Shown: positions 31,081 to 50,386 of the stretch, in pieces
Numbering within the stretch: position 1 is the first letter of the stretch
How the letters are laid out: every line of letters begins with the position of its first letter
Source: Tubulanus polymorphus
Lineage: Eukaryota; Animalia; Nemertea
Length of the DNA: 64,000 nucleotides
NCBI RefSeq assembly: GCF_964204645.1
Contig: NC_134031.1
Location: forward strand, 6,758,001-6,822,000
Direction of reading: 5' to 3'
Notes under the pieces: generated by a model
What the model was told of the DNA's origin: nothing
Database searches by the model: none
What the model saw: the letters and a program-made list of their open reading frames with translations, nothing else
Program-made: the position numbers and the translations under genes

Positions 31081-31968
31081 ATGAATTCAGCGTCCAGAAT
31101 TGGAAGGCCTTATTTCTCTTCAATTAGCATGAAGGGAATGGACCAAATGCCATCGAGGTTCCGGACGTTCTTCATAGCAGCTACGTTGATAATTTTCGCA
31201 TTTGGATTCTTTGGTAACGTATCGAGTTGCGTCGTAACTACGAGCAAGCGTTTCGTGTCTTTATCGTTCGCTAACTACCTGACAGCGTTGGCGATATTCG
31301 ACATGTGGTGTTTGACGGCCAGGACCTGGTTGCCCGTGATACGTTTACTTTCTAAATCATTCAAAATGTTACAAATAAAACTGTCGGATGTCGGTTGTTT
31401 GCATGAATCGACGTTTTTGATATTTAGTCGCATGAGTTCGTTATTGATCACGATCGTAGCTGTTGAGCGGTTGATGGTGGTCATGTTTCCGTTCACAGCT
31501 CGATTTATATGTAAACCGAAGTTCGCACGATTAGTAATGTCGATAGCGTTCGTTTTAGCTTTTGCATCTTCTATTCCACAAGGAATGTTATTTCTACGAT
31601 ATTCAACAGAAAACAGCTGTCATTATTCTAGCGTAGAACACCAACGTTACATTTTCAACGCTGTGATTCCGAGCCAGTTTTATTTGTTACTTACTTTGGT
31701 TTCCGTTTCGAATATTCTCATCATAGCTAAGCTTTATCGACAAAAAGATTTCGGTTCCGGCAGATCTAAAGCGGCCAAAAACAGACAAACGAATATCATG
31801 TTAGTTACCGTCACAGTAGTTTCCATTGTTACGACACTTCCGTCTACATTTACCGTAATGATAAAACTTCCGGTTGCCTTGAACTATAAATCAATAGCAA
31901 TTTCGTGGCTATTTTTGAATTTTAACTACAGCATAAACTTTTACATTTACATTATGCTTGGGAAATAG
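31081..31968 (+). CDS. Single-exon rhodopsin-like (class A) GPCR; TAG stop falls within the expected helix 8
   Basis: GN in TM1, LAIFD, VER (DRY-like), NFYIY in TM7; seven hydrophobic segments. Confidence 0.88.
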   Translation: MNSASRIGRPYFSSISMKGMDQMPSRFRTFFIAATLIIFAFGFFGNVSSCVVTTSKRFVSLSFANYLTALAIFDMWCLTARTWLPVIRLLSKSFKMLQIKLSDVGCLHESTFLIFSRMSSLLITIVAVERLMVVMFPFTARFICKPKFARLVMSIAFVLAFASSIPQGMLFLRYSTENSCHYSSVEHQRYIFNAVIPSQFYLLLTLVSVSNILIIAKLYRQKDFGSGRSKAAKNRQTNIMLVTVTVVSIVTTLPSTFTVMIKLPVALNYKSIAISWLFLNFNYSINFYIYIMLGK

Positions 31969-32219
31969 TTTCGAACGACATTTTTTCATTTTTTCAAAAC
32001 TTCATGATTCACAAGACGTTCACATCCAAAACCGATGTGTTACGGTACGAAATTGCACAGGGTAACCATTCTGAATATTGTTTTCACTCGCAAATTAGAA
32101 TGGACCGGGAAAATCCCCGAGTGGACAATAAATATCTAAGGATATAACAGTCTAACAGCTAAATCAACTGCACCAATATGCTGCCAGATTGAGTTGTGCT
32201 CAATAGCAAATAATGTAGC

Positions 32220-32622
32220 AGTAATAGGGGTTTAGTTGTTTCATACCAAAGGTCGAAAGGTCGAGCCCGAGAAATTTTCCAAAATGTTAAAATAACAACA
32301 ATTTCTACTTGAATTAGTCGCGTACACTCCTAATTCAAGTAGAAATTATTATTATTTTAACATTTGGAAAATTTATCAACCTCAACCTTTCAACCTTTGA
32401 TATGAAACAACTAAACCCCTATTACTCTTAAAATATTCATATATATATGAATAAAATATAAATCATTGAACTTCTAAAATCAATTTTAATAAAAAATATA
32501 GTATTAAAATGGAAGCAAATAAGTACTACTGCCCAACATGTAATATCGATATAGATAAATCCCAAAAAGCAAGACACAATAAAACTAAAACACATTTAGA
32601 AAATAAATTGAAACTAGAATAT
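32220..32622 (+). repeat. Left TIR (403 bp); first 207 nt form an internal hairpin; includes the first 38 codons of pPolB
   Basis: Reverse complement of 49984-50386; the only mismatch I noticed is at 32614. Confidence 0.95.
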
Positions 32623-35600
32623 GAAGATGATATATTAGAAAATAAATTAGAAGAATTAAAGGATGAAAAAGAAACATACAAATGTGATACATGTAATCAA
32701 TCATTCAGTGATAAAAGATATTATAAAGAACATTTAAAATCTATAAGTCATATTAGAAATAAGAATAATGATATTTTAGGTGAAGATTATTTTGATAATG
32801 ATAACGATAAGAAACAGAAGACAATTAAAAGAATAAAAAATAAATTAAACAATAAAAGACCATACATGGAAGATGTAAGAAATTATATTAATTCATTAGA
32901 TAATAAAAAAGATATAGAGATAACCGAAGCATTTAAAAGTGATATTGGTCCAGCAGCTATCGAGTTTAAATTTCATAAAGGTAAAACATTAGAAGAAAAT
33001 AAAAAACATTTAGAAAATATGAAAGAAATAATAAAAATAATTACAAACGTAGAATACCCAAAAATTAGTATATCAGTTAAAGTAAAGTTTATAAAATCTG
33101 AAGATAAACCAATATATAATATAAATTCTCATTCACAACATATTATATCTAAACAACATATAGATGATAAATTAGATAAATGTTATAATGAAATAAAAAC
33201 TAAAATAGAAGAGAAATATTTTGAAGGATCTGGTTTAATATTTGATGAGATAATATTTATAACTTTACATGTTTATAACACAAAATATAATAAGTTAACT
33301 AAATCAAAACCAATTGATGAAAATAATTTATCATATTATAAAGATGATAGTATAAATGGAACAAGTTATATTAAACTACCATTTAAAACTAATGGTGTAA
33401 TAAATATACAAAATGAAGATGATAAATGTTTTCTATGGGCTATAATAAGTTGTTTACATCCAACAGAAGATATTACACATAGTTTTAGATTAACTCATTA
33501 TAAACCATTTGAAAATAATTATAAGATAGATAAGTATCCTGTTAGAATTAAAAACATCCCAAAAATAGAAAGAGATAATAATATAAAGATAAATGTATTT
33601 GATTTAATCAAATTACCAAATACAAAAGGAAATAATATTAAACATTATACATTAGAACCTTTATACCTATCAAAAGATTATGATTCAAATGATGTTATAG
33701 ATATACTATATTATGAGAATCATTACATGTGGATTAAACAAATCGATTTATTTTTTAAATCAGAAAATGATTTTGATAATAAAATATATCTATGTAGAAA
33801 ATGTTTACATAAATTCAGAACTGAAGGTGCATTATTAAATCATAAACAACTATGTGATAATCATGATTATTGTAAATTAGTTTTACCAAATGAAAAAGAT
33901 AAAATATTAGAATTCAAAAAATATGATTACAAAAATAAAGTACCATTTGTAATATATGGAGATTTTGAATCATTAAATAAAGAATTAACAGATAAAGATA
34001 GAAAAGATATATATTATAAAAGAAAGAAATTAAATTCTAATGAAAATGATTATTCAGATGAACCACCAATAACAAATACTATTAAAAAGATTCATCAATC
34101 AGCTGCAGCTTTCGGGTTATATATTCAATCTGATTATCCAGAACTAATTGAAAGTGAATATTATGATTATAGAAATGAAAATGTTATAAATCATTTTTGT
34201 GACTTATTAATTGAATATGAAATAAGATTTAGTAAATTATTGAATACAAATATAGAAATTATAATGACAGAAGAAGATAAAGAAGGATTTGAGTTTGCAG
34301 ATAAATGTTATTATTGTAATCAAGTATTCTATTCATCTGATAAAAAAGTAAGAGACCATGATCATTTGAATGGAAAGTTTAGAGGCGCTGCGCATGAGAA
34401 TTGTAACTTACAAGCTAAGAAAATTAACTTTGTACCAGTTATATTTCATAATCTATCAGGATATGATGCACATTTATTTATCAAACAGTTATGTCATAAA
34501 ATAGAAGAAATCAATAATGAAATAGAAATATTAAATTCAAATAGATCAAAAGATAAAATACCAACTTATAAATTTAGAATGTTAGCTAAAACATCTGAGA
34601 ATTATATATCTTTCCAATTTGGATGCTTAAGATTTATAGATTCATATAGATTTTTAAATAGTTCATTAGATAACTTATCAAAATCATTAGTTGATGATGA
34701 ATTAAAGATATTAAAAGAATATTACCCAAATAATGATGATTTTCAATTAATGAGATATAAAGGCGCAATTCCATATTCATTTTATAAATCACATAATGAT
34801 TTCAATATAACTGAATTATTGAAAGAACAATTCTATGATGAATTAAAAAATGAATATGTTAAAGATGAAGTCTATAATAGAACATTAAATATTTGGAATC
34901 ATTTCAAAATAGAAAATCATGGGCAATTAGTAGATTTATATTTAAAATCAGATGTATTATTATTAACCGATATATTCGAAAGGTTTAGAGATGTAAACCT
35001 AAAATATTTTAACATTGATCCTTGTCATTGTTATTCATCACCAGGTTTAACATGGGATTGTGGATTAAAATTTACAGATATAAAAATGGATTTGTTAACA
35101 AATATAGATCAATTACTATTATTTGAAAAATCTATAAGAGGAGGTGTTTCAGGTGTATTGGGTGATAGATATTTCAATGTAAATGATAATCCTGGATATA
35201 AATTATTATACATAGATGCAAATAATCTTTATGGTTGGGCAATGATGGAACCACAACCTTATGGGATGTTTGAAATAACTGAAGTTTTACAAATTGATAA
35301 ATTTGATTGGAAGAAAAGAATTCTAGATATTGCAGATGATTCAGATACTGGTTACTTCTTTGTTGTAGACTTGGAATATCCTGAACATATTAAATTTAAA
35401 TCTAGAAATCTAGCATACTGCCCAGAACATAAAACTGTAACTCATGAAGAATTATCAAATTATCAAAAAAGAATTAAACCCGATAATCATATTCATACTG
35501 AAAAGTTAATGGTAACTCAAGAAGATAAATATAATTATGTAGTGCATTATAGAATGTTGAAGTTTTATTTGAGACAAGGAATGATATTAAAAAAAGTACA

Positions 35601-36540
35601 TAGATATATTTCATTCAGTCAATCTAAATGGTTAGAAAAATATATAGATTTTAATACTACACAGAGAACTGAAGCTAAAACTGATTTCGAGAAAGATTTC
35701 TTCAAACTAATGAATAATGCATTCTATGGTAAGACTTGTGAAAACATAAGAAATAGAAATGATATTGAGTTAGTTAGTAATGGTAAAAGGATAAGGCATT
35801 TACAATCATATCCTAAGTTTATAGGTAACAGAATATTTGATGAAAATTTAGCAGCAGTTAAAATGAGGAGAACTTCTATGAAGTTCAATAAACCTATTTA
35901 TGTTGGTGCATCGGTTTTAGAATTATCAAAGTTATTAATGTATAAATTTTACTATAACATATTACAACCTCATTTTGGAGAAAAACACATAGAAATTCTA
36001 TACTTTGATACCGACAGTTACATATTAAAGATAAAAACTGATAACATAACAGATGATTTAAAAACATTAAAACACCATTTTGATTTTAGTAACTATCCTA
36101 AAGATCATGAATTGTTTAGCAATGATAATAAAAAAGTTCCTGGGAAGTTTAAGGATGAATTAGGTGGTGAAGAAATGATAGAGTTCATCGGTATTAGATC
36201 TAAAATGTATTCATATAAAACTAAAACTCATGAAGCTAAAAAGTTAAAAGGAATTACCAAAAGCGTTGTTGAAAAGAATATTCATTTTAAAGATTACATC
36301 AATTGTATATTTAATGAAGAAGTTAGAAAACATAAGATGAAATGTTTAAGATCTGAAGATCATGAAATGTATATTGAAGAGATAGAGAAGATAAGTTTGA
36401 ATCCATTTGATGATAAAAGATATATTTTAGATGATGGAATCCACACAGTCGCCTATGGCTGCAATTTAGATGAATATATAAAATTCAAAAGAGAAGAAAC
36501 AAAAGAAAATGAGATTATGAAAAGGATTCTAACGTGTTAA
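32509..36540 (+). CDS. polB: Protein-primed family B DNA polymerase with N-terminal zinc fingers and an endonuclease VII-like insert
   Basis: YGDFES, FHNLSGYDAH (exonuclease), DHDHLNGKFRGAAHENCN, YIDANNLYG, KLMNNAFYGK, YFDTDS. Confidence 0.96.
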   Translation: MEANKYYCPTCNIDIDKSQKARHNKTKTHLENKLKLEYEDDILENKLEELKDEKETYKCDTCNQSFSDKRYYKEHLKSISHIRNKNNDILGEDYFDNDNDKKQKTIKRIKNKLNNKRPYMEDVRNYINSLDNKKDIEITEAFKSDIGPAAIEFKFHKGKTLEENKKHLENMKEIIKIITNVEYPKISISVKVKFIKSEDKPIYNINSHSQHIISKQHIDDKLDKCYNEIKTKIEEKYFEGSGLIFDEIIFITLHVYNTKYNKLTKSKPIDENNLSYYKDDSINGTSYIKLPFKTNGVINIQNEDDKCFLWAIISCLHPTEDITHSFRLTHYKPFENNYKIDKYPVRIKNIPKIERDNNIKINVFDLIKLPNTKGNNIKHYTLEPLYLSKDYDSNDVIDILYYENHYMWIKQIDLFFKSENDFDNKIYLCRKCLHKFRTEGALLNHKQLCDNHDYCKLVLPNEKDKILEFKKYDYKNKVPFVIYGDFESLNKELTDKDRKDIYYKRKKLNSNENDYSDEPPITNTIKKIHQSAAAFGLYIQSDYPELIESEYYDYRNENVINHFCDLLIEYEIRFSKLLNTNIEIIMTEEDKEGFEFADKCYYCNQVFYSSDKKVRDHDHLNGKFRGAAHENCNLQAKKINFVPVIFHNLSGYDAHLFIKQLCHKIEEINNEIEILNSNRSKDKIPTYKFRMLAKTSENYISFQFGCLRFIDSYRFLNSSLDNLSKSLVDDELKILKEYYPNNDDFQLMRYKGAIPYSFYKSHNDFNITELLKEQFYDELKNEYVKDEVYNRTLNIWNHFKIENHGQLVDLYLKSDVLLLTDIFERFRDVNLKYFNIDPCHCYSSPGLTWDCGLKFTDIKMDLLTNIDQLLLFEKSIRGGVSGVLGDRYFNVNDNPGYKLLYIDANNLYGWAMMEPQPYGMFEITEVLQIDKFDWKKRILDIADDSDTGYFFVVDLEYPEHIKFKSRNLAYCPEHKTVTHEELSNYQKRIKPDNHIHTEKLMVTQEDKYNYVVHYRMLKFYLRQGMILKKVHRYISFSQSKWLEKYIDFNTTQRTEAKTDFEKDFFKLMNNAFYGKTCENIRNRNDIELVSNGKRIRHLQSYPKFIGNRIFDENLAAVKMRRTSMKFNKPIYVGASVLELSKLLMYKFYYNILQPHFGEKHIEILYFDTDSYILKIKTDNITDDLKTLKHHFDFSNYPKDHELFSNDNKKVPGKFKDELGGEEMIEFIGIRSKMYSYKTKTHEAKKLKGITKSVVEKNIHFKDYINCIFNEEVRKHKMKCLRSEDHEMYIEEIEKISLNPFDDKRYILDDGIHTVAYGCNLDEYIKFKREETKENEIMKRILTC

Positions 36541-36568
36541 TCAATTTCAATAAAAATTTGTATAATAA

Positions 36569-36910
36569 ATGGAGAGTAAACAAGTACACAGTGAATTCTT
36601 AGATAGAATTAAAGATACTTCAAGCGTCAAATCTGTAGATTATAAATTTAAAAAACTAACTGAGTTAACAATTCACAAGAAATATTTAATTACTAACATT
36701 GAAACAATTACTAATAAATATGGAGATAAATTAGTTATACACTTAGAATATGAAGGATTAAAAGGAAATACATATAAATTCAGAACATATTTACCTGATA
36801 GATTTCATAGATTATCAAGTGAAGATTTAGAAGAATTATGTTCTGGAGATTTCTATTTCATATATAAAGGTAAGAATGAAAAAGGGCACCACGATATTGA
36901 TTTTGAATGA
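36569..36910 (+). CDS. Small hypothetical protein, possibly an OB-fold ssDNA-binding protein
   Basis: Intact ORF directly after polB; beta-rich pattern (KYGDKLVIHL, TYLPDRF). Function inferred. Confidence 0.6.
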   Translation: MESKQVHSEFLDRIKDTSSVKSVDYKFKKLTELTIHKKYLITNIETITNKYGDKLVIHLEYEGLKGNTYKFRTYLPDRFHRLSSEDLEELCSGDFYFIYKGKNEKGHHDIDFE

Positions 36911-36925
36911 AAATATGTAAAATAA

Positions 36926-37681
36926 ATGGTGGAATTAAAAGAATACAGAATATTTGTTGATTCTAGAAAACTTACAAATTATAAATCACATAATTTACTA
37001 GTTCAATTAGATAGAGAATTTAAGAATTGTGTTGATTTAAAATTAGTTAATATAAGTTTATGTAATTCTTTTTACAATGTATCGGATAAAACTTTTGAAC
37101 ATAGAGGGTTTATGATTTATATGAGAAATAAAGATAAATGGTTTCATATATTTTTAAAACCAGGATTATATAATTTAGAATCATTAGCGCAGGAAATTAA
37201 TAGAAGAGCTCGGTTGAAAATCGGGGGCACTTCTGTATTTGAAATTAAGTTTAATAAAATTGATAGTACTAATAAAATAAGAATAAAGATATCTAATGAA
37301 CAACATAAATTTATGGTAAACAAACCACTGGCTAAAATGTTAGGAATTAAACCGCTTACAGTTACTGGAAACGCAGAAGGCAGCTCAAATATAATACCTT
37401 TTACACACTTTTATATTTATTGCAATTTAATCGAGCCTACAAAAACTTTCGAAGCAACTAAAGAAACAATTTGTAGTTCTAGTATACTAAATATTTTACC
37501 GCTAAAAAATGTTAAACAATTTGGAACTCAAATAAATTATAATTTAACAGAATGTGATTTTAAACCATGCATTCCTAAATTTAATAATTTTAAATTAGAA
37601 ATAAGAAATCATAATGGATACTTAATTGATTTAAATAACTTTCCTGTAATTTATGAATTAGTTATAAGATGTAAAGAGTAA
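36926..37681 (+). CDS. Minor capsid (penton) protein, single jelly roll
   Basis: Polinton penton-like motifs IFVDS, PGLYNLESLAQEIN, YIYCNLIE, ILNILP, LEIRNHNGYLIDLNN. Confidence 0.75.
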   Translation: MVELKEYRIFVDSRKLTNYKSHNLLVQLDREFKNCVDLKLVNISLCNSFYNVSDKTFEHRGFMIYMRNKDKWFHIFLKPGLYNLESLAQEINRRARLKIGGTSVFEIKFNKIDSTNKIRIKISNEQHKFMVNKPLAKMLGIKPLTVTGNAEGSSNIIPFTHFYIYCNLIEPTKTFEATKETICSSSILNILPLKNVKQFGTQINYNLTECDFKPCIPKFNNFKLEIRNHNGYLIDLNNFPVIYELVIRCKE

Positions 37682-37697
37682 TTTTTTTGATATATAA

Positions 37698-38057
37698 ATG
37701 AATATAACTGTTGGACCGAGTATATGTTTTGGATTTGATTTTAAACGTGAGAAAGAAATGAAATTTAACATTAATGATGTAATAACACATATCAAAAATA
37801 TTACATTTTCTAATGAAACAACATTTGAGTATGAAACAACAATAGATAAAGAAACTTTAAATGTAGAAAAGATTACTAATTTAATTAGAGAATCTTTAAG
37901 ATTTTATGAATTAGATGAAGATTTTATCATCGATGATATTAAAAAAATAATAATTGAAATATATGATAATCATAAAACTAGTAATGAAATAAATGTTGAA
38001 ATAATCATCACTAAGTTAACTAAATATTTTGATGATAGTAATTTTTTTGATAAATAA
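37698..38057 (+). CDS. Hypothetical acidic protein
   Basis: Intact ORF in the element's gene array with a T7-N6-TAAATG start. Confidence 0.65.
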   Translation: MNITVGPSICFGFDFKREKEMKFNINDVITHIKNITFSNETTFEYETTIDKETLNVEKITNLIRESLRFYELDEDFIIDDIKKIIIEIYDNHKTSNEINVEIIITKLTKYFDDSNFFDK

Positions 38058-38279
38058 ATGAGTGATAATAAGTGGATAATAACTGGATTATATAATGGCG
38101 CATTACTATCAGTTGGAACTGTTGGTTATTCAATGGTATTAAAAAAAGTATTCAAAATGGGAAGTGTTAATGTTGATAGATTTGATATAAATGATATTCT
38201 AAAATTAACATTAGCAGTTACTTTATCTAATTTAACTATTGATTATTTGGAAAAACAAAAATATATTCCTCCTATATAA
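38058..38279 (+). CDS. Small predicted membrane protein
   Basis: Two hydrophobic segments; T7-N6-TAAATG start. Confidence 0.7.
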   Translation: MSDNKWIITGLYNGALLSVGTVGYSMVLKKVFKMGSVNVDRFDINDILKLTLAVTLSNLTIDYLEKQKYIPPI

Positions 38280-38303
38280 ATACATAATTTTTTTGCTAAA
38301 TAA

Positions 38304-38729
38304 ATGGCTTCTGCAATTATAACTATTATAGGATCGGCAATTGTTAACGCTTTAGCATTTACTGGTGGTGGTTATATATTTAAACATATTGATAAAAATA
38401 GTTCATTAGGAGAACAAAGAAGACATAACTTAGCGTTAGAGAAATACAATAAAGCTGCAGAAGAATATAGAGAAAAGAGGCAAAACTATATGGATTACAT
38501 CAATAAAGAATTATATGATCAGAAGATTTCACATAGAGATTTTCAATCAGTTGATGATGCAATGAGTTTATATAACGCAGTAACAAATAAAGAAAAATTA
38601 CATCTATACAAACCTAAATTATCAGATTATTATACCCCAAGTAAAGAACAACAGAAATATGAAATAATTTGGATTTTAGGTGGAACTGTTATTGTTATAT
38701 TTGTTGCTTATAAGTTTACTAATGAGTAA
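38304..38729 (+). CDS. Predicted membrane protein (N-terminal hydrophobic/Gly segment, helical core, C-terminal TM)
   Basis: MASAIITIIGSAIVNALAFTGGG ... IIWILGGTVIVIFVAY. Confidence 0.75.
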   Translation: MASAIITIIGSAIVNALAFTGGGYIFKHIDKNSSLGEQRRHNLALEKYNKAAEEYREKRQNYMDYINKELYDQKISHRDFQSVDDAMSLYNAVTNKEKLHLYKPKLSDYYTPSKEQQKYEIIWILGGTVIVIFVAYKFTNE

Positions 38730-38747
38730 TTTTTTTTTGCTAAATAA

Positions 38748-39182
38748 ATGGAAGATAAAGTTGATAGTATTGATATTATTCCTCATGATATAAATAAAAC
38801 TAAATTAAAAACATATTTAGAAAAACAAATATTAGAATTTGAAAGTGACTTAAAAGTTAAAAAGAAAAAATATCTAAAAAGTAAAATTATATATTATTTG
38901 ATTATAAGTGGTTCGGTTACAATTAGTTCTGTAATAACATTTTTAGCAATATTCAGCCCATTAACACCTTTAGCTATATCAATTGGTGTGTTAGGATTAA
39001 GTTCAAGTGTTTTAACTGGTATAAGTTCAAAATTAAATATAAAAAGTAATAAAGTAAAAATTAAAACTAATATAAAAGAAATTAATAAATTAAAGAATAC
39101 ACTAGATTATATAATAAGTTTAAATGGTCATATAACAGTTGAAGAACAAGATAAATTATTAAAAGAATTAATAAATTATTAA
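38748..39182 (+). CDS. Two-TM protein flanked by coiled coils
   Basis: IIYYLIISGSVTISSVITFLAIF and LAISIGVLGLSSSVLTGI. Confidence 0.75.
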   Translation: MEDKVDSIDIIPHDINKTKLKTYLEKQILEFESDLKVKKKKYLKSKIIYYLIISGSVTISSVITFLAIFSPLTPLAISIGVLGLSSSVLTGISSKLNIKSNKVKIKTNIKEINKLKNTLDYIISLNGHITVEEQDKLLKELINY

Positions 39183-39199
39183 TTTTTTTAATTATATAA

Positions 39200-40588
39200 A
39201 TGGTAGATAGTTTTCCAAAAGCTTTCCGATATAATAAATCAATTAAATATAATATTCCAGCAATAGATTTTAATAAAGATATTACATATAGAAATGAAGT
39301 TTTAGATTCATTAATTGATTTATATATTTATGTTACTGAAACTAATAATTTTAATGCAAAGATGGAAAATATATTTCATGTATATTTAATTAATTTTAAA
39401 AAATTGAAAGATGAAAAACAATGGTTATTAAAATCTAATATGAAGTATTGGCAGAATCAATTAAATTTTGCTGTTTATTGTGCAACAACAGGTTGTGGAA
39501 TTAGTTGGAATGATCATTTGAATAATTCTAAATATAAACTAATTCAAAGTTTATTTAGATTTCATACATACTTTCAAATCAGAATAATATTAAATGAATT
39601 AGAGTGCGCTTTACCAGGATCTAGGTATTTTAAAGAATTAGATAATAATATTAATTTATCAAAGTTTTATAAAATTTGTAATGAATTTAATATAGATATA
39701 AATAATTCTGATTTTAGAACAAAAATTGGAACAATAAGATCACTTCCTTGCCCTAAAAAGATTGCAGAATATTGCGCACTTCCCATACCATCTAATAGCT
39801 TTTATAATATCTATAATAATAAATTAGGTTATGGTAAAATTGAAACAAAGGATTTAGAAACATTAAATTTCAATAAATTACCGAAATTTTATGATAATTT
39901 AAAACAAGAAAACAATAATGGTTGGGTTTATTTTATTTTAGAAAATAGTGAAGGTTTTACTAAATCAGGTATACAAAGAATAAATCAATCTATTAGAACT
40001 TATTTGATATGTATTTTAGGTGCGCAAGTTGAAACAAGATCACCAATAATTGGAAATTTGAATACATCATTTGATACACAAAAACAATTTAAAGTTTTAT
40101 TTGAAGATTCAATTCATAATGATAAAAATAGATCGATTCCAGAAAACATTATAAGATATCAAAATTATTTAGATAAATCTCATGTAAGACTTAATTATTG
40201 TATAGGCCCTAATCTATTAATTATTTCTAATGATTTAGTATTGAAGATGGGAAATATAATTGGTTATAATAATCTAATTAAAACTGCAACAATAAATAAT
40301 TCATTTGGATTAAATGATATAAATAAAAAGATTATTACTGCTCCAAAATTAATGGAGGGTGAAAAAAATAAAAAACACATTCAATCAACAGAAACTAAAA
40401 CTAATAATATTAAATTGGTTAATGATTCTAAAATAAAAGATTACAATACATCAGAAAATATTAAAACTGATAAAATTCAACATGATATAATTAAACTAAA
40501 TGATGATAATAAATCCCATGAAAATACTAAATTAGCTATAACTTGTATAGGAATTGTAATCGGAGGAATATTATATTTTAAATTTTAA
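39200..40588 (+). CDS. Uncharacterised 462-aa protein with a C-terminal TM anchor
   Basis: Long intact ORF; terminal LAITCIGIVIGGILYF. Confidence 0.8.
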   Translation: MVDSFPKAFRYNKSIKYNIPAIDFNKDITYRNEVLDSLIDLYIYVTETNNFNAKMENIFHVYLINFKKLKDEKQWLLKSNMKYWQNQLNFAVYCATTGCGISWNDHLNNSKYKLIQSLFRFHTYFQIRIILNELECALPGSRYFKELDNNINLSKFYKICNEFNIDINNSDFRTKIGTIRSLPCPKKIAEYCALPIPSNSFYNIYNNKLGYGKIETKDLETLNFNKLPKFYDNLKQENNNGWVYFILENSEGFTKSGIQRINQSIRTYLICILGAQVETRSPIIGNLNTSFDTQKQFKVLFEDSIHNDKNRSIPENIIRYQNYLDKSHVRLNYCIGPNLLIISNDLVLKMGNIIGYNNLIKTATINNSFGLNDINKKIITAPKLMEGEKNKKHIQSTETKTNNIKLVNDSKIKDYNTSENIKTDKIQHDIIKLNDDNKSHENTKLAITCIGIVIGGILYFKF

Positions 40589-40604
40589 TTTTTTTATTAT
40601 GTAA

Positions 40605-42074
40605 ATGGAAGTAGAAGGTGGAGAAGATTATGAAATGGGAGAAATGGGAAATAATAATGAAGGATATATTGATGATGAACCACAACCAGATTTTAATGAA
40701 ACTAATATTGATAATGATGATGAATCAGCATATAATTCTAATTTAGCAGATAGTGGTTCTAAAGGTCAATCAACAGATGAATTTGATAGAAGAACTAGAT
40801 CGAGAATAAATCCTGAAAATGAAAATCCAGATTTAGTAAAACAAAATTTAGAATATAATGAATATATTTATAATTTCAAACCTATATTTGAAAAATCTGG
40901 ATATAATATCAATGCTAGAGGCGCCAGACTTTTAGTACAAGAATTAAAATCTTTAGATGGTGAATATTATTATCATTTGAAAGATGATTATTATATTGAT
41001 ATCTCTTATAAAAAACAAAACAAAATATTAGCAGAATCAACTTTGCTTAAGTCTGACTCATTACTATCTAGAATTAAAAGAATAAGAAATAGTAATGAAA
41101 TAGAAGATGTAACACAAGAAGAAATTATTAAAAATGAAAGAGTATTTAAACAAAGAATTAATGAATTATTTGAAACAATCGATAATAATTTAGAAACAGA
41201 AACAACTTCTGAACAGAATATAACTTCCAAAACTAGTAAACTTAAATCAAATAAAGTTCCAATTGAAAAACTTTTACCGAATGGGTTACTTGATGCAACA
41301 GATCAAGAATTAGAAGATTTAGATATATTTTCTGATAAAGCAATTAGAGAAATTATTAGTATAAGACTTGCATCTGATAAAATTTCGCATGATAAAAGTA
41401 TAAGAGATTTTAAAATTAGAACTTTAGAAAAAGAATTAACTGATAAAAATAAAGAAATAGAACAACTAAAATTAGATAGAGATAATAAAGTTATTGAAGA
41501 AATTGAATTTAAAAAAAGAAATGCATATTTAGAAAAAGAAATTGATGATTTAGAATATAACATAGAATTACAAAAAGAAGAAATTAAATTATTATTAAAA
41601 TCATATGATTATAATATTAATAGATTAAAAGTTATTTTTAAAGATTTGTTGATTAAACCAAATTCTGAAATATCATTAAAAGACAGAATAAAGTTATTAT
41701 TTAAATTAGAAGGAATAACAATTCTTTCAATTCTAACAGCTGTAACTATGTTATTTACAACAATTGGTTTAGCAATATCAAATGCTTTGAAATCTACTCC
41801 TACTCCAAATAAACCAGATAAACCTCCAGGTAATAATTCTATACAAGATAAAGTAAAGGATGGTTTAAAGAAATTAGCAAAATATTTATGGGAACTATCA
41901 AAGAAATCTGCTGCAGCATTGCCAGGAGTTATTGCTTCAATTGTTGGTTTTATATTGAAATCTGCAGGAAACATTATTAACTTTGCTGCTGAACATATTA
42001 TTTTATTTTTAATTACAGTTGTAAGTGCTATTATTTTTGGTTTAGTAAATATGATATCAAAAAATATCAAGTAA
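40605..42074 (+). CDS. Acidic N-terminus, long coiled coil and multi-TM C-terminus (489 aa)
   Basis: Heptad-rich middle region; about three hydrophobic segments at the C-terminus. Confidence 0.8.
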   Translation: MEVEGGEDYEMGEMGNNNEGYIDDEPQPDFNETNIDNDDESAYNSNLADSGSKGQSTDEFDRRTRSRINPENENPDLVKQNLEYNEYIYNFKPIFEKSGYNINARGARLLVQELKSLDGEYYYHLKDDYYIDISYKKQNKILAESTLLKSDSLLSRIKRIRNSNEIEDVTQEEIIKNERVFKQRINELFETIDNNLETETTSEQNITSKTSKLKSNKVPIEKLLPNGLLDATDQELEDLDIFSDKAIREIISIRLASDKISHDKSIRDFKIRTLEKELTDKNKEIEQLKLDRDNKVIEEIEFKKRNAYLEKEIDDLEYNIELQKEEIKLLLKSYDYNINRLKVIFKDLLIKPNSEISLKDRIKLLFKLEGITILSILTAVTMLFTTIGLAISNALKSTPTPNKPDKPPGNNSIQDKVKDGLKKLAKYLWELSKKSAAALPGVIASIVGFILKSAGNIINFAAEHIILFLITVVSAIIFGLVNMISKNIK

Positions 42075-42115
42075 ACCATGATAAAAAATAAATAATTAAT
42101 TTTTTTGTTAAATAA

Positions 42116-43363
42116 ATGAGTGGGAGTTATATAAGTCCTTCGAAGATTTCTAGAATATCTAATGCTATTAAAGCAGAAAGATCACATCATATAATTACTC
42201 ATAACCCTTCAAATATTAATCCCGATGAAACTTTATATGTTAGAATCCCTCGATTAACACAAAATACTTTTTATGTTCCAAATAGTATTTATTTATCAGC
42301 CGATATAAAAGTAATCGGTAATAATAATAATTATGTTGTCGATAATGTTGGAAGATATTTGATTAAAAAATTAATAATAAAGATTGGACCAGAAACAGTT
42401 TTCTCATTAGATGATTATAATTTATTTATGCATTATAAAGATTTATGGTTAACTAAAGAAAATAGAAATAATATGATATTTCAAGGAATTCAATCAGAAA
42501 ACCAAAATAAATTAAGATCAGAAGCTAATAGCGCAATATTAACTAATGATGTAGATAAATTGATAAAAAGTATATATGGAAGCAAATATAAAATTCCATT
42601 AGACTTTGAATTGATAAATAATAATGCACCTTTATATAAATACGCAATTCAAGAAGATATTATATTTGAGATAACATTTGCTCCTGTAAATGAAATCGTA
42701 ATATCTAGCGTTAATAAAGATATGAGTTATAAATTATCGAATATATGTTTAGAATATGATACAGTAACTGATGAAAATATTTCAAGTATAATTCAAACTC
42801 AATACAATCAAGGATTTTCATTATTATATGATTATATTGATAAATTTAAAACTGTAACTATTAATGCAAATGATGAAATAATTAATGAGAATATTAACTT
42901 CCCTAGAAGATCTATTAAAGGTATATTAATATTTTTTACCATTGGAACGTATACTAATGGCGCAATAAATGTTGATAATTATTATAATCCTGAAATAACA
43001 AAAGTAGAAATAACTATCGAAGGAATAGCAAATAAAATATTTTGTCAAGGAATGAGAATGATTGATCAATGGGTAGAAATTAAAAAACATTTTATGAATG
43101 AAAAAGTAAAATCATTTGAAAATTGTAACATTAATCAAATTGATTATTATACCGGTAATAAATATGCATTATGGTTAGATTTTAGAACAACTGAGGATAA
43201 TTCATTACATGGTTCTGGAAAAAAACTACAAAATACAAAAGATGGAATACAATTATTCATGACAAAGAAAAAGGGAATCAAAAATTTTAAAATGCATATT
43301 TATATTATATCTGACGCACAATTAAATATTGTAAATTCACAATTAGATAGTGTTATGTATTAA
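42116..43363 (+). CDS. Probable major capsid protein (double jelly roll)
   Basis: 415 aa, beta-strand-rich alternating pattern, size and context typical of Polinton MCPs; not confirmed by profile search. Confidence 0.75.
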   Translation: MSGSYISPSKISRISNAIKAERSHHIITHNPSNINPDETLYVRIPRLTQNTFYVPNSIYLSADIKVIGNNNNYVVDNVGRYLIKKLIIKIGPETVFSLDDYNLFMHYKDLWLTKENRNNMIFQGIQSENQNKLRSEANSAILTNDVDKLIKSIYGSKYKIPLDFELINNNAPLYKYAIQEDIIFEITFAPVNEIVISSVNKDMSYKLSNICLEYDTVTDENISSIIQTQYNQGFSLLYDYIDKFKTVTINANDEIINENINFPRRSIKGILIFFTIGTYTNGAINVDNYYNPEITKVEITIEGIANKIFCQGMRMIDQWVEIKKHFMNEKVKSFENCNINQIDYYTGNKYALWLDFRTTEDNSLHGSGKKLQNTKDGIQLFMTKKKGIKNFKMHIYIISDAQLNIVNSQLDSVMY

Positions 43364-43395
43364 AATTTTAACTTTAATAAAAAATCTTATATTAA

Positions 43396-44468
43396 ATGGA
43401 AGGTGGAATATATGAAATACAAACTCCAAGTGAAATGATATCAGATATATATTATATATTACCTTATGATGAATACAGTAAGTATTTTGGAGATTACTTT
43501 AATCAATTCAAATATAGAATAAGTAAAATAGATAAGAATATTGAAACAAAAATAGTGATAATATTGAACCTAAAATAGAAGATAATATTGAACCTAAAAT
43601 AGAAGATAAGAATGATATTGAATATAAAATAGAAGATAATATTGAATCTAAAATAGAAGATAATGTTATACCTTCTACATCGAATTATGATAAGATTGAA
43701 CCTGATATCAAAACCAAAAAGATAAATGAAAAATCAAATGTTCAACCAAAAGATAACATCAGATGTATGTATTGTGAAGAAGATTTTGATAATTATAATG
43801 ATTATTTATTACACATCAAAAAAGATGAACATATTTTACAATTAGTAAAAACATATGCCAATATATATAAAGATAAATGCAAAGAGGATCAGAATTATTG
43901 TGCCTTCTGTAATGAATGTATAACAAAGGCTAATTGGGCAAAACATTATAAATTAAAAACAAAAGGTGGAAATGATTCAGCCCATGCAATACAAGTATTT
44001 AAATCTTGGTGTGAAAAATGTAAAGAATATGTAATATATGATAAACAATTGAATCATAAATACTCAATTAAACATATTGGTACAGATAATGTAATAGAAA
44101 ATCCAACAGTTATAAATCCAAAATTTAATAATAAGAATATATTAGATTATCGGTGGTATAGAAAAACATTTATAGATTATTTATTGAGTAATGATATAGT
44201 TACCATATTGAAAAAGTTAGATAACTTTAAACCAAATGTAACTTATGCAATGAACTTATTTGAACTTAAATATGATGATTTTAGAGAATTTTTAAATAAA
44301 CATTCATCTAAAACTGAAATCGAAAATTATATTCCAAAAATATTTTCAAGAAAAACATTCAATAAATATAAACTCGAGAATCATTTAGGACCTATACCAA
44401 TGAAAATGCAAAGGAATTTATGGTTAGAATACAATAAGCTTAAAGAAAAATATGAAAATGAAAATTAA
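43396..44468 (+). pseudogene. Zinc-finger protein with KIEDNIEP repeats, split by a 1-nt frameshift at ~43556
   Basis: One repeat unit reads aaaatagtgataat versus aaaatagaagataat elsewhere; the shifted frame is open through RCMYC...H...H into the 43767 ORF. Confidence 0.75.
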
Positions 44469-44855
44469 AAATATTATAGAATTCACTGTATATTGATGGA
44501 TGAATGGATGAGTTGGAAGAGTTGGATGAGTTGGATGAGTGGAAGAGTGGATGAGTATAATAATATATATATTTTACTTTTTAACACATAAATTGGAAGA
44601 ATAGTATGAGTATAAATATAATATTTATATTCTTTATTAAATTTAACACAATATATATATATTATTAAAATAATATTTAAATATAGTATAAAATTGATAA
44701 AATAACTTCAAATCAAACTCTTACTGTTTTAAAAATAAAAAACATATGTAAATTATATATTATTACACTCATCCATTCATCCACTCATCCAATTCATCCA
44801 ATTCATCCAATTCATCCACTCATCCATTAGTATACAGTGAATTCTATAATATTTT
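44468..44855. repeat. Long inverted repeat (~105-bp arms containing TGGATGAG/A units) between the convergent gene blocks
   Basis: aaaatattatagaattcactgtata at the left and tatacagtgaattctataatatttt at the right. Confidence 0.85.
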
Positions 44856-44866
44856 GAATTAGGATT

Positions 44867-45478
44867 TTATTTTATAAATTTATATTCATATGGAAATTGT
44901 AATCTCATAAGTAATTTGGAACCTTTATTATTCTTTAATTTATTCATATATTCATCATGTAATTCAGGAGGTATAATTTGATTTTCTTCCAATGATTGTT
45001 GCATAGATTTTTTATCTTTGTTATAAAATAAAACTAGAAATCTTATATTCTCTCTAAAATCTTTCACAATTGAATTATATTTCTGATTTAAAACCCATGT
45101 TGTTATCCCAAAATGTCTACCAGAGAAAGCTAAATAACATAACTCACTTTCTCTAATTTTAGAATCATGTAAATTTGCGCAATCATCAATAATAAATAAT
45201 GTATTTGATCCTTTATAAGTATCAATTGCTATTTTAATACAATTATCTAAATTTTCTTTTACTGTTTTAGAATCTAATATAATAAACTTTTTTATCTTAA
45301 CTATATCTCTATTATATGTTTTATTCATTTCATAAGTTGGGCAGAATAATATTATATTATCGAAATGATTCTGATAAATAGTTTCTAATAAATCTAATAT
45401 GAAGTGTGTTTTACCACAATTTGTAACTCCAGTTATTAACATATTATGTGGTTCAAATATAAACAAATCTTTATTCAT
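44867..45478 (-). CDS. A32/FtsK-like DNA packaging ATPase
   Basis: Walker A GVTNCGKT, Walker B FIIDD, arginine finger GRH, downstream NQ sensor. Confidence 0.92.
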   Translation of the reverse strand: MNKDLFIFEPHNMLITGVTNCGKTHFILDLLETIYQNHFDNIILFCPTYEMNKTYNRDIVKIKKFIILDSKTVKENLDNCIKIAIDTYKGSNTLFIIDDCANLHDSKIRESELCYLAFSGRHFGITTWVLNQKYNSIVKDFRENIRFLVLFYNKDKKSMQQSLEENQIIPPELHDEYMNKLKNNKGSKLLMRLQFPYEYKFIK

Positions 45479-46559
45479 TTATTCTTTTAATTTTACTAGA
45501 TAAAATCCATTCATTAAATTTATCATCATATCCTTTATATTTCACCAAAGAATACTTTTTTCCTTTAAGAGTTTTTGTTTTCAATACTTTTTCTATTTTG
45601 TATTCTATTTCATCTGGATTTGGTACAAGTGATAATTCTTGTTCATAGAAATAACCTAATATTTCTTCATCTTTTAGATCTTCTAATTTATAAACAAATG
45701 GTTTAGTTAATATTATCTTTTTAATTTTAAATATTTCTTCAGTAAAATTAGGGGTATAACCTTTATAAAATGTTTTTCGATATTTAGAAATTCTAACATG
45801 TTGTCCTATTTTAAATTTAGGTTCTCCAAAATCATGTGTAACAAATGCTCCATATAAATTATTCCAAACTATTTCTGAATTTTCTTCTTTTCTAGCTTGT
45901 ATAGGTTTCATATTTATAGAACTATGTTTAGAATTATTATAACCTTTAACTAAATCATCTAACACATCGATATATTTATATGTTTCATTAGCGGTGAAAT
46001 ATTTCCACATTCTAGTTTTCAATGTTTTATTAAATCTTTCTATAACAGATGCTTTTTTATCTGAATGTGTTGAAAAATATTCTACATCGTTATCAGATAA
46101 TAGTTTTTTGAAATGTTTGTTATAAAATTCTTTACCTTCATCAAATTGTATTTTATCTGGAATAGCTTCTTTAAATATTAATTTGAAAGAATTTGTAACT
46201 TCTATACCAGTTTTATTTTTAATCGGGATACTCCATGCGTATCTACTGAATATATCTATAACATTTAGTATCCAAAAATATCCTTTGTTGTATTCTTCTA
46301 AGTTTTTCATGTCAATTAAATCTGCTTGCCATTGTTGATCAATATATGAAACCATTACTTTTCTTGTTAAATATTTTTTATCCATCTTTTTATGAATTTG
46401 ATATGTGGGTTGATTTTGTAACCATGATTTTAATTCACTATATTTTATTTTTTCTTTATCAGATTTAATTTTATCCCATAATTCTGAAACACTTGAATAT
46501 GAAACTTCACTTTCTGGGTTATAATATAAATCTCTTAAATATTGTTCTTTTTTCATCAT
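45471..46559 (-). CDS. Retroviral-like DDE integrase with C-terminal chromodomain
   Basis: WQADLIDM, IDIFSRYAW, FDEGKEF, ERFNKTLK; chromodomain YKIEKVL...VKYKGYDDKFNEW. Confidence 0.95.
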   Translation of the reverse strand: MMKKEQYLRDLYYNPESEVSYSSVSELWDKIKSDKEKIKYSELKSWLQNQPTYQIHKKMDKKYLTRKVMVSYIDQQWQADLIDMKNLEEYNKGYFWILNVIDIFSRYAWSIPIKNKTGIEVTNSFKLIFKEAIPDKIQFDEGKEFYNKHFKKLLSDNDVEYFSTHSDKKASVIERFNKTLKTRMWKYFTANETYKYIDVLDDLVKGYNNSKHSSINMKPIQARKEENSEIVWNNLYGAFVTHDFGEPKFKIGQHVRISKYRKTFYKGYTPNFTEEIFKIKKIILTKPFVYKLEDLKDEEILGYFYEQELSLVPNPDEIEYKIEKVLKTKTLKGKKYSLVKYKGYDDKFNEWILSSKIKRINE

Positions 46560-46562
46560 ATT

Positions 46563-46946
46563 TTAATCCATTAATAATATTTTAGATTTATTTTCATTTG
46601 ACTTATTTTCTGGTATGATAGGTTTATTGTCATTGGAATCATCTTTATCGTAAGATTTGAATTTTGATTTATATATTACACCGGATAATATAATAACTGT
46701 TACTAATCCAATTGTAATATATAATTTATAATTACTTCCAACATTATAAGAATTAGATGGATTATTATTTGAATCAATACCACCGTGTGGGTGCTGTACG
46801 GCACCATCAGATAAAGTCTGTGATTCATTTATATCAGTTAATTTCTTTTTCTTAGCTTTTTTTAATTCTGAAGATCTTTTACCTAATTCTCTTGCCCATT
46901 TAATTTGTTTATCGGATCTAGCCTTTTTCTTAACTCCATCACTCAT
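46563..46946 (-). CDS. Basic N-terminal, single-TM protein
   Basis: Lys/Arg-rich start; LYITIGLVTVIILSGVIY; TAAATG start overlapping the upstream ORF. Confidence 0.7.
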   Translation of the reverse strand: MSDGVKKKARSDKQIKWARELGKRSSELKKAKKKKLTDINESQTLSDGAVQHPHGGIDSNNNPSNSYNVGSNYKLYITIGLVTVIILSGVIYKSKFKSYDKDDSNDNKPIIPENKSNENKSKILLMD

Positions 46947-47547
46947 TTATTTTAGTTAATTTTTGTTCTGATTCATTTTCTGTTTCGACGTTTGGTTGTA
47001 GTACAGCGTCATCTGTTTCGTTCTTACCTGATTTATATTCCATAGGTTTGATGTTCGAAAATGTAATGACACCAGTAGAAATCAATGTCATAACCGATCC
47101 TAATTGAAATGAAGCATAACCGACCCATTTTTGTAATTCAGTCATAACTAAATAGTCATTTTTCAAATCATTATATAATTTATTTTCATCATCAATTGGT
47201 ATTAACTGGTTACATAATTTTGAATAACATTTGACAATACCATCTGAAACAGAATCATTTATTCTAGCTAATCGAGCTTCTTCATAAATCTTAAAATATT
47301 TTATTACTTTATCGGGTTTCATAGCATCTAATTCTTGAAAAGTAATGATTCTATTTAAAAACTCATTAGTTTTTCCACCGGCAATCAATAGTTCTATATG
47401 GTGCTTACAATATAAATTGTATTCATAATCTATATTGTTATTAACTTGAATAGAATTAGAAACAACTGTATCTTTATTATCACTAATACCTAAATCATCT
47501 AATGTATTTTCAATATCAATACTATTCTTATTAGATTTCTTTGACAT
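46939..47547 (-). CDS. Hypothetical protein with a C-proximal hydrophobic segment
   Basis: Intact 202-aa ORF; T-run then TAAATG start. Confidence 0.7.
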   Translation of the reverse strand: MSKKSNKNSIDIENTLDDLGISDNKDTVVSNSIQVNNNIDYEYNLYCKHHIELLIAGGKTNEFLNRIITFQELDAMKPDKVIKYFKIYEEARLARINDSVSDGIVKCYSKLCNQLIPIDDENKLYNDLKNDYLVMTELQKWVGYASFQLGSVMTLISTGVITFSNIKPMEYKSGKNETDDAVLQPNVETENESEQKLTKINE

Positions 47548-47967
47548 TTATATTAGAGTAAAAAAGCAAAAAAAATATTATAAGTATTCTTCAAATGATA
47601 CTAGTATCTCTTTAGGTTAATACTAAATTGATTAGGTTAGTTAAAGTTAAAGAATTTCTATTCAAATCTATTCAAAATCTATTCAATCTAATGTCAATTA
47701 GAATTACCAAAAGAAAATATTAAAAATATAACAGAATTCACTAGCTAGTTGAAGTTATTGTTTTTTTATTATATTTTATTTAAATTAGGATTTAGATTAT
47801 CTCACTACTATTGTCTATCTATTAGGAGCAGTAATTATAACTGTCCAGATAAGTCATTTCGGATCCTCGATATCAAATCCTCAACTGAAAATAAATTCAA
47901 AGAAACGACTGGTGGAATTACTATTTCATAAACACATATATTTATTATGTAAATTTTAGCGATCGAT

Positions 47968-48220
47968 AATAGAACAATGGAGAACAATAGAAATGCGGTC
48001 CAATCGGACCGGTTATTGCGCAATACACGGTTATATTTTTATTCTAACAACGATCAATAATAGAACAATGGAGAACAATAGAAATGCGGTCCAATCGGAC
48101 CGGTTATTGCGCAATACTTAGTTAACAGTAAACAATCAATACAGAACAATGGAGAACAATAGAAATGCGGTCCAATCGGACCGGTTATTGCGCAATACTT
48201 AGTTAACAGTAAACAATACA
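47968..48220. repeat. Three direct repeats of a ~57-bp core containing two palindromes
   Basis: agaacaatggagaacaatagaaatgcGGTCCaatcGGACCggtTATTGCGCAATAc at 47971, 48062 and 48143. Confidence 0.9.
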
Positions 48221-48285
48221 ATATTAAAACAGATATATACAACATTTTTTGATATCTATATTACAAAGACCTTCAGTGTTATAAT

Positions 48286-48753
48286 TTATAATTTTGTCCA
48301 GAATTCTTTAATTACTGGATTGTTTCCAATCATTTCTTCAATTTCTGGTAAATGTCTTACTACTTCACTAAATGCTAATCCTAATATTTTGAATTTTTCA
48401 TATTTTATTAATCTACCTACTCTTCTCAGTTTTCTTTCAAAACCGGCACTGATATCTCCACTCATTTTCTTAGTTTTCGATTATTTGAGTCCCAACAGCA
48501 ATTTAAGTCGCGTTGCTGGTAATTTTGGTAATTGTAGTTCGCGCGGTAATTGTTTATTATGTATTACATCACTCAGAGTTTTCACCATTTCTTGATGATA
48601 GTCCAAATGTTCTTATAATTTTTGTGAAGTTTGTTCGTCAATTACGAGAGTTTTATCCTCCATTTCTATTGATTCCTGAGTTTCACTATCTATCGTTTCT
48701 GGTTCCTCATACGTTGGTTGGCTTAGAATTTCTGGTCGATCTTTGTGTTCCAT
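48286..48753 (-). pseudogene. ~155-codon element gene with two in-frame TAA stops
   Basis: Starts TAAAATG GAA CAC; one frame runs to TAA at 48286 with internal TAAs near 48613 and 48481. Confidence 0.6.
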
Positions 48754-49845: not shown

Positions 49846-50097
49846 TCATTCTTCGTTGCTTTTGATAAGTTGTTTCGATTCCTTGATATCAAATTCCTCA
49901 ACGTATTGTTCATTATTTGGATCATTATTCCATAATTCAATAAATTTCTTTGCTTTTGTTAAATGTTCTGAATATAACTGTAAATATTCTAATTTCAATT
50001 TATTTTCTAAATGTGTTTTAGTTTTATTGTGTCTTGCTTTTTGGGATTTATCTATATCGATATTACATGTTGGGCAGTAGTACTTATTTGCTTCCAT
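49846..50097 (-). CDS. Chimeric ORF: pPolB N-terminal zinc finger (from the TIR) fused to an HNH-like C-terminal tail
   Basis: First 38 aa identical to pPolB; LQLYSEHLTKAKKFIELWN resembles IQLYLDQLDKAKTFVELWN of the neighbouring HNH. Confidence 0.7.
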   Translation of the reverse strand: MEANKYYCPTCNIDIDKSQKARHNKTKTHLENKLKLEYLQLYSEHLTKAKKFIELWNNDPNNEQYVEEFDIKESKQLIKSNEE

Positions 50098-50386
50098 TTT
50101 AATACTATATTTTTTATTAAAATTGATTTTAGAAGTTCAATGATTTATATTTTATTCATATATATATGAATATTTTAAGAGTAATAGGGGTTTAGTTGTT
50201 TCATATCAAAGGTTGAAAGGTTGAGGTTGATAAATTTTCCAAATGTTAAAATAATAATAATTTCTACTTGAATTAGGAGTGTACGCGACTAATTCAAGTA
50301 GAAATTGTTGTTATTTTAACATTTTGGAAAATTTCTCGGGCTCGACCTTTCGACCTTTGGTATGAAACAACTAAACCCCTATTACT
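49984..50386 (-). repeat. Right TIR (403 bp)
   Basis: Inverted copy of 32220-32622. Confidence 0.95.

Follow-up and report, generated by a model that had tools for sequence, protein, structure and literature searches.

A stretch of 64,000 nucleotides (nt) from the nemertean Tubulanus polymorphus (NCBI RefSeq assembly GCF_964204645.1, contig NC_134031.1, positions 6,758,001 to 6,822,000 of the forward strand), referred to here as the window, contains an intact Polinton of 18,167 nt at positions 32220-50386. This element carries a set of seven genes, most of them for hydrophobic proteins, which in an animal Polinton lineage without a maturation protease is passed on together with the capsid and packaging genes, and we infer that this set on balance likely gives the particle a lipid membrane. 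The lineage is widespread. The first-pass annotation of this DNA had reported five consecutive open reading frames (ORFs) of 73, 141, 144, 462 and 489 amino acids (aa), whose positions and lengths proved exact. The observation is real, conserved and more general than that annotation saw, and we have modest confidence that it reflects a membrane-containing virion. The seven genes are listed below; the names in brackets are the labels of Buck (2024, PMC11071296).

38058..38279, forward strand: o73 (Nispumem), 73 aa, a small, moderately hydrophobic protein of two helices, with marginal transmembrane (TM) status
38304..38729, forward strand: o141 (Fus), 141 aa, with a hydrophobic Gly/Ala-rich N-terminus, a charged helical middle and a C-terminal TM segment
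38748..39182, forward strand: o144, 144 aa, a SLATT-like two-TM hairpin
39200..40588, forward strand: o462 (Titinmem), 462 aa, with a folded domain of about 385 aa, a disordered linker and a conserved C-terminal tail anchor
40605..42074, forward strand: o489 (Cah), 489 aa, with an acidic disordered N-terminus, a small alpha/beta domain, a coiled-coil hairpin and three hydrophobic helices
46563..46946, reverse strand: o127 (Lardeb), 127 aa, with a basic N-terminal part and one TM segment (hydropathy 1.95)
46939..47547, reverse strand: o202 (Ayleven), 202 aa, helical and conserved, with the T-run/TAAATG motif described below at its ATG, present in 21 of 83 loci

TM segments had been attributed to all five ORFs of the block, and two further hydrophobic ORFs had been noted at 46563-47547. 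Hydropathy analysis (Kyte-Doolittle, 19-mer in the window; for segments in homologues, 17-mer with a threshold of 1.6) bears this out for o141 (two segments, 2.0 and 2.0), o144 (two segments, 2.15 and 1.74), o462 (a single C-terminal segment, 1.75) and o489 (three segments, 2.19, 1.76 and 2.65), and also for the 127-aa ORF. It does not do so for o73, whose maximum is 1.16 and of which 3 of 16 homologues reach 1.6, and the window copy of o202 is weak (1.34), with an N-terminal TM segment found in some homologues. Among controls at the same threshold, 3 of 21 major capsid proteins (MCPs) and 1 of 18 packaging ATPases reach it.

A total of 2313 homologues was found for o141, and its two hydrophobic ends are retained in 115 and 114 of 120 of them. 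Five residues in the hydrophobic N-terminus (G10, A12, N15, F19 and G21) are invariant in 118 sequences, which would be unusual for a plain signal peptide; the C-terminal segment has a median of four residues behind it, and Cys is almost absent. The linear layout of peptide, helical rod and C-terminal TM segment fits a minimal class I-like fusion subunit, for which o141 is a candidate. In the case of o462, there are 147 homologues, with the C-terminal anchor present in 98 of the 120 listed, and in the AlphaFold model (predicted local distance difference test, pLDDT, 80) a domain built mostly of helices is followed by a disordered linker and then by a helix at the end. Foldseek searches of BFVD and the PDB with this model found nothing at E<=0.001, the best VIA match (Z 3.7) covered short helices alone, and Atlas gave no usable match; such missing fold matches do not prove a new fold.

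The three hydrophobic segments of o489, for which 34 homologues were found, are present in 30 of 35 sequences, and the helix that lies amid them is amphipathic and cationic (over 29 homologues, net charge +4.3 and mean moment 0.58). A long coiled-coil hairpin precedes the hydrophobic helices in the model (pLDDT 66; predicted template modelling score 0.38), for which a BFVD search found nothing at E<=0.001. The layout of o489 is reminiscent of pore-forming translocators rather than of a glycoprotein fusogen, and o489 is a candidate penetration protein. Homology to translocons is not claimed, since IpaB tied with unrelated coiled coils. Because an N-terminal hydrophobic segment is lacking and both models are mainly helical, neither o462 nor o489 is predicted to be a gB-type (class III) fusogen. 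The absence of such a segment, by hydropathy, from o462, o489 and o144 fits insertion from the cytosolic side, which is the side from which the membrane proteins of inner-membrane viruses are inserted. The expectation that the products would not prove to be host-derived held for the o462 and o489 models, for which fold searches gave no match to such proteins. Reticulon was matched at E 0.29 and orbivirus VP5 at E 0.5, both of which are regarded as noise, and Pfam gave no sign of the homology to poxvirus A11 that the label Ayleven had suggested for o202.

SLATT profiles match o144 weakly and below threshold (E 2.9e-4 to 0.034; best 20.7 bits against a cut-off of 55), and SLATT_fungal is matched by 3 of 21 members. 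From 27 homologues with an intact N-terminus, 21 remained after dereplication at 80% similarity; P[ST]AP occurs in 12 and YPx1-3[LI] in 18 of these 21 N-termini, as compared with 0.3 and 1.3 in shuffled sequences. These are the late-domain motifs for TSG101 and ALIX, respectively (PMC10159163), and they are in keeping with budding or with an open membrane being sealed.

Relatives were collected by a search with the o462 alignment. It confirmed 356 metagenome loci, of which the best 80 were used; together with three loci from a genome collection they make up a set of 83, most of them on short contigs. Among these loci, o489 is present in 61, the penton in 51, o144 in 37, the MCP in 37, the ATPase in 21, o202 in 21, o73 in 16 and o141 in 14. 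When only the 19 loci with both MCP and ATPase are considered, o489 is found in 19, o202 in 16, o144 in 14, o73 in 14 and o141 in 11, and all five genes occur together in 9. Only the locus L002 has the whole gene order of the window, and L001 and L003 have parts of it; the loci usually run o144-penton (reverse), o462, o489 (reverse), MCP, ATPase, o202, an o127-like ORF, o73, o141 and integrase, and 12 ORFs were recorded as positional counterparts of o127 between o202 and o73. The gene set persists despite its changed order. Because relatives keep the set in other orders, the contiguous five-gene block is a local arrangement, and the real unit is the seven-gene set made up of the five ORFs, o127 and o202. 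The first-pass annotation would have been refuted by a block not conserved among relatives; the genes and their linkage to capsid and ATPase genes are conserved, their contiguity is not.

This set is kept in L009 and L016 although their replicase is a superfamily 1 (SF1) helicase (L009:9970-13404; L016:9279-12458, reverse strand), at the place where other members have a protein-primed family B polymerase (pPolB); these two loci would represent replicase exchange under a constant capsid-membrane module. Pairwise comparison with L002 by a simple NG86 method, on very AT-rich DNA, gave ratios of nonsynonymous to synonymous substitution rates (dN/dS) of 0.07 for o73, 0.19 for o141, 0.31 for o144 and 0.26 for o462, with 0.27 for the MCP, and these four genes are under purifying selection like that of the MCP. 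L002, the closest relative (20% GC), also carries a deoxynucleoside kinase at L002:10343-10981 (reverse strand; Pfam dNK, E 1.7e-31). Relatives of the MCP form 488 clusters at E<=1e-30; IMG/VR scans with the MCP, the MCP alignment and the o462 alignment gave no matches.

Some relatives have features of their own. The penton and the SLATT-like gene are joined in a single 436-aa ORF at L032:2128-3438 (reverse strand), which could reflect either decay of this copy or a genuine fusion. An extra ORF of 175-313 aa, not present in the window element, lies between the SLATT-like gene and the penton in L008, L009, L010, L013 and L069, and with a weak C1q match in L069 it is perhaps a fibre. Homologues filed under the names of bacterial metagenome-assembled genomes (P0125, P0338, P0353 and L081-L083; Sulfurimonas, Thiodiazotropha and Anaerolineae) are probably eukaryote-derived contigs that were binned into those genomes.

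The other genes of the element and its terminal inverted repeats (TIRs), with their target-site duplication (TSD), are as follows.

32509..36540, forward strand: PolB, 1343 aa, with family B motifs seen in the sequence and an Endonuclease_7 match (E 1.6e-4)
36926..37681, forward strand: probable penton (minor capsid protein), 251 aa, with weak matches to DUF5901 (E 4.5e-4) and PBCV-1 P1v1 (E 0.21)
37698..38057, forward strand: o119, an acidic, non-hydrophobic ORF of 119 aa with the T-run/TAAATG motif, in only 2 of 83 loci
42116..43363, forward strand: MCP, 415 aa, with Pfam Capsid_N among its homologues and the name Hexon in the supplement of Buck (2024)
44867..45478, reverse strand: A32-type packaging ATPase, matching Pox_A32 (E 1.6e-12; 47.9 bits against a cut-off of 22.8)
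45471..46559, reverse strand: rve integrase with a chromodomain, rve being above the Pfam cut-off
32220..32622, forward strand: left TIR, 403 nt, starting AGTAATAG, with the TSD TGTAGC just before it at 32214-32219
49984..50386, reverse strand: right TIR, followed by the TSD TGTAGC at 50387-50392

We take the 1343-aa ORF to be a family B polymerase from motifs that we recognized in it; a Pfam search of this ORF gave no PolB family match. The 415-aa ORF is read as the MCP because, of 18 homologues in the alignment, 13 match Capsid_N, with a best E of 2.3e-4, the window copy itself giving no match. The penton appears to be the weaker identification of the two; the gene beside Titinmem carries the name Penton in the supplement of Buck (2024). 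The block had been placed between penton and MCP, and the MCP is indeed its next neighbor, but on the penton side the non-hydrophobic o119 intervenes. Neither Pfam nor inspection of the element's ORFs revealed a candidate for the adenain maturation protease, and no phospholipase was found among them; 47 unassigned ORFs of at least 125 aa from 15 long loci likewise gave no match to protease or phospholipase families. The element has the hallmarks of Polintons/Mavericks in the broad sense, namely, TIRs with a 6-bp TSD, PolB with an rve integrase, and an A32 ATPase, and lacks the adenain that marks adintoviruses and group 1 Maverick-Polintons. For the further Polinton traits of a double jelly-roll MCP and a single jelly-roll penton, the signs are the Capsid_N matches among MCP homologues and the weak penton matches. 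Adenain is carried by 74% of Polintons (PMC4028283).

The TIRs are 100% identical over 403 nt, the 6-bp TSD is TGTAGC, and GC content is 24% inside the element versus 38% in the flanks. One 1146-nt contig of run X1 aligns to 31628-32220 and 50387-50946, spanning the insertion point as an empty site, and the insertion is therefore recent and polymorphic. In run X7, which has the same species label and of which about 12% was read as raw reads, depth is 3-8 in the left flank, 145-1008 over the five-ORF block and 31-66 in the o60/o233 region; the block is covered like the MCP, and the o60/o233 cargo region is variable and poorly covered. These depths are those of a many-copy family, or of extra-chromosomal DNA, that generally carries the block. 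Each TIR opens with a long imperfect palindrome capable of forming a hairpin (32220-32437 and 50180-50386), within which other copies differ, with loose read ends near 32289-32325 and 50340. The TIR takes in the PolB promoter and first codons, so that the right end has a second copy of the PolB N-terminus, in an 83-aa ORF (49846-50097, reverse strand). Where the convergent o233 and ATPase genes meet (44455-44868) there is an inverted repeat of 115 nt with short repeats of the GGATGA type, and tandem repeats lie upstream of o202 (47960-48210), either of which is a possible origin or terminator. The flanks contain a LINE-type reverse transcriptase and genes for G-protein-coupled receptors (GPCRs), of which single-exon rhodopsin-type members at 31081-31968 and 53391-54341 (both scanned) flank the element; the ORF at 57529-58479, equal in length to that at 53391-54341, is a candidate GPCR by its length.

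The five ORFs of the block had also been said to share the promoter motif of the MCP, and this is confirmed. The pattern T(6+)-N4-12-TAAATG occurs at eight sites in the 18.2-kb element, against 0.73 expected from 200 local shuffles, and all eight sit on an ATG, those of o119, o73, o141, o144, o462, o489, the MCP and o202, with a spacer of 6 nt between T-run and TAAATG at six of them. Such a layout of T-run, spacer and TAAAT is that of poxvirus late promoters (PMC5294985). The motif is restricted to AT-rich relatives, being found at 11 of 23 genes in 5 loci below 30% GC and at none of 198 genes in 78 richer loci. A role as a 3'-end signal is also possible, because AATAAA lies inside four of the eight sites and the T-runs of the block stand close behind the preceding stop codon. 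A second, A-rich class, TTyAaTAAAAA about 10-14 nt before the ATG, precedes PolB, o113, o60, o221 and o83 (sites upstream of 32509, 36569, 43396, 49767 and 50097; the pattern was derived from these same sites, with no chance control), and the two classes suggest a split between early and late genes. A depletion of TTTTTNT (3 versus 12) was set aside, since A-runs are depleted too (62 versus 94).

If the particle does contain lipid, the seven genes would be expressed late, together with the MCP. Tail-anchored o462, with its large cytosol-side domain, and o127, with its basic head and TM segment, would link the capsid and the DNA to a membrane taken from the host, and the o144 hairpin of most relatives would use P[ST]AP and YPxL to recruit TSG101 and ALIX for cutting or sealing that membrane. 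At entry, o489, through its coiled coil and hydrophobic and amphipathic helices, and o141 would break through the target membrane or fuse with it, and o73 and o202 would serve as small membrane-shaping or assembly factors. An inner membrane and a budded envelope are indistinguishable from these genes. The inner-membrane or entry module of the first-pass annotation survives as a conserved hydrophobic set, but no known inner-membrane or fusion protein is matched and the relatives' motifs, of the type that engages the ESCRT machinery of endosomal sorting, fit budding equally. Because late-domain motifs are absent from the AT-rich sub-clade and its structural genes have poxvirus-late-like promoters, we tentatively suggest, as a possibility below even chances, that this sub-clade depends on a cytoplasmic large DNA helper virus. 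The fullest version of the proposal is doubtful: that a large Polinton lineage consists of membrane-containing viruses in which protease maturation was replaced by a seven-protein module and host ESCRT, with the AT-rich sub-clade having become, in integrated form, a parasite that draws on the late transcription and the membranes of a poxvirus-like virus.

A number of observations weigh against a lipid-containing particle. Membrane-active genes also occur in viruses called non-enveloped (Starrett et al., 2021, PMC8502044), as do late-domain proteins in the non-enveloped hepatitis A virus (PMC10159163). With o462 as the bait, elements with the same MCP and without the module could not appear. 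The dN/dS values are 0.68 for o489 and 0.74 for o127, and the correlation of distances with those of the MCP (0.59-0.84) points to shared descent only, as the integrase also reaches 0.51. The o144 proteins of the window and of L002 are shorter and have neither P[ST]AP nor YPxL, their orthology to the motif-bearing proteins is based on 18-28% identity and an iterated profile, and the 21 N-termini of the motif set are related rather than independent events. The VIA matches of o489 (Z 10-12.8) all fall on the coiled coil at 241-359 and are generic coiled coils, and neither o73 nor the window o202 is a clear TM protein. Finally, no significant Pfam, PDB-sequence or fold match to a known virion membrane protein or fusogen was obtained, a lack that does not exclude such homologues.

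Among the alternatives, the strongest is a naked icosahedral capsid, in which o489, o141 and o73 would be lytic entry proteins held inside, like adenovirus protein VI, and o144, o462 and o127 would be non-structural exit proteins forming at most a temporary vesicle coat. Adintoviruses have been described with membrane-active accessory genes (PMC8502044), Buck (2024) filed the o489 orthologue Cah as a capsid-surface coiled coil, and late domains serve quasi-enveloped exit as well (PMC10159163); the cationic amphipathic helix of o489 is also in keeping with a lytic protein. However, a capsid without a membrane could hardly house six or seven hydrophobic proteins that are conserved and all stand under the MCP-type motif, two of them being truly anchored at the C-terminus, and there is no protease to free a lytic peptide, so that we consider a naked capsid possible but unlikely.

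It is less probable still that the proteins remodel host or helper-virus membranes in the cell, outside the element's own particle, whether in a replication or assembly compartment or by boarding the membranes of a poxvirus-like helper. The poxvirus-late-like motif with its 6-nt spacer at six of eight sites, the GC content of 24% against 38% in the flanks, the deoxynucleoside kinase of L002 and the existence of polinton-like viruses associated with entomopoxviruses (PMC11296320) could all be accommodated in this way, but the membrane genes are general and the motif occurs only in AT-rich relatives, no helper came to light, and the TTTTTNT depletion is confounded by that of A-runs. Lastly, it is very improbable that the hydrophobic genes have no part in particle assembly and are antiviral or toxic cargo, causing abortive infection by SLATT/holin-like pores. 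This reading is in line with the weak SLATT matches of o144 (E 2.9e-4 to 0.034) and with the SLATT/holin-like genes of polisuviruses, suggested for defence or lysis (bioRxiv 10.64898/2026.10.13.758929), but it covers one gene of seven, the o60/o233 cargo region is variable and poorly read-covered whereas the block is covered like the MCP, and the hydrophobic genes are constantly linked to capsid genes.

The same gene set, with motifs matched by eye without an alignment, is found in Meldvirus sus6842 (BK066732) and refMeld LC027333 from abalone, both in File3 of Buck (2024, PMC11071296). Slatt, Penton, Titinmem, Cah, Hexon, PacK, Integrase, Fus, Ayleven and Lardeb are listed for both, and Nispumem for Meld6842 only; Adenain is absent from the 13 and 16 proteins listed for the Meld genomes, as it is from the window element. 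The Meld records differ in having one or two 'Glycot' genes and another gene order. The names are declared arbitrary in that work and carry no functional claim; its main text, in the parts examined, is silent on these genes and genomes, and the membrane module, the late-domain motif and the promoter are not discussed in those parts. The Hexonrif of Meld23486 was rejected as a relative of the window MCP, as it looked unrelated by eye.

Adintoviruses and Maverick-Polinton groups 1 and 2 are like the window element in their pPolB, rve-chromo integrase, A32 ATPase, capsid genes and TIRs (Starrett et al., 2021, PMC8502044; bioRxiv 10.64898/2026.06.19.733378), whereas the window element differs from adintoviruses in having neither adenain nor PLA2X. 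PLA2X, GasderminX and Cupiennin are described as membrane-active genes of adenain-bearing adintoviruses, and SLATT appears on the maps of the cnidarians Hydra and Stylophora (Starrett et al., 2021). Octocoral, hydrozoan and bivalve ATPases have been placed outside the main groups (Bellas and Sommaruga, 2026, bioRxiv 10.64898/2026.06.19.733378), and SLATT/holin genes are mentioned in polisuviruses (bioRxiv 10.64898/2026.10.13.758929). Canonical Polintons are modelled on non-enveloped particles like those of adenoviruses or virophages; enveloped particles have already been proposed for nematode Mavericks with MFUS-1 (Widen, bioRxiv 10.1101/2022.07.12.499685) and membrane-active genes for adintoviruses. 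MFUS-1 is a single 866-aa gB-like glycoprotein with a signal peptide, in contrast to the several small, Cys-poor hydrophobic proteins of the window element, which have no such ectodomain.

Inner-membrane double jelly-roll viruses, including tectiviruses, PM2, poxviruses and other nucleocytoplasmic large DNA viruses (NCLDV), are similar to the window element in the NCLDV-type capsid N-domain, the A32 ATPase and the poxvirus-late-like motif. These viruses, like the window element, have several small membrane proteins adjoining their capsid genes; no homologue of their membrane proteins was detectable in the window element. In the literature searched, mostly outside subscription journals and with supplements in part, no description was found of the module, of late-domain motifs or of a pox-like promoter in animal Polintons; the gene set is already deposited as sequence, uninterpreted, and its reading as a membrane module was not found in that literature.

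The virion of a Maverick-Polinton has never been observed (Bellas and Sommaruga, 2026, bioRxiv 10.64898/2026.06.19.733378), and the module would bear on how Polintons leave and enter animal cells. It names proteins to look for, and in o462 there is a 385-aa domain that matched no known fold. From the poxvirus-like promoters, a helper virus not yet known would be expected. With a membrane module that is conserved and independent of a protease, in a lineage of thousands of sequences, the predicted particle is unlike that of the adenovirus-like model, and between large DNA viruses and their tectivirus-like ancestors there would be a step with a membrane.

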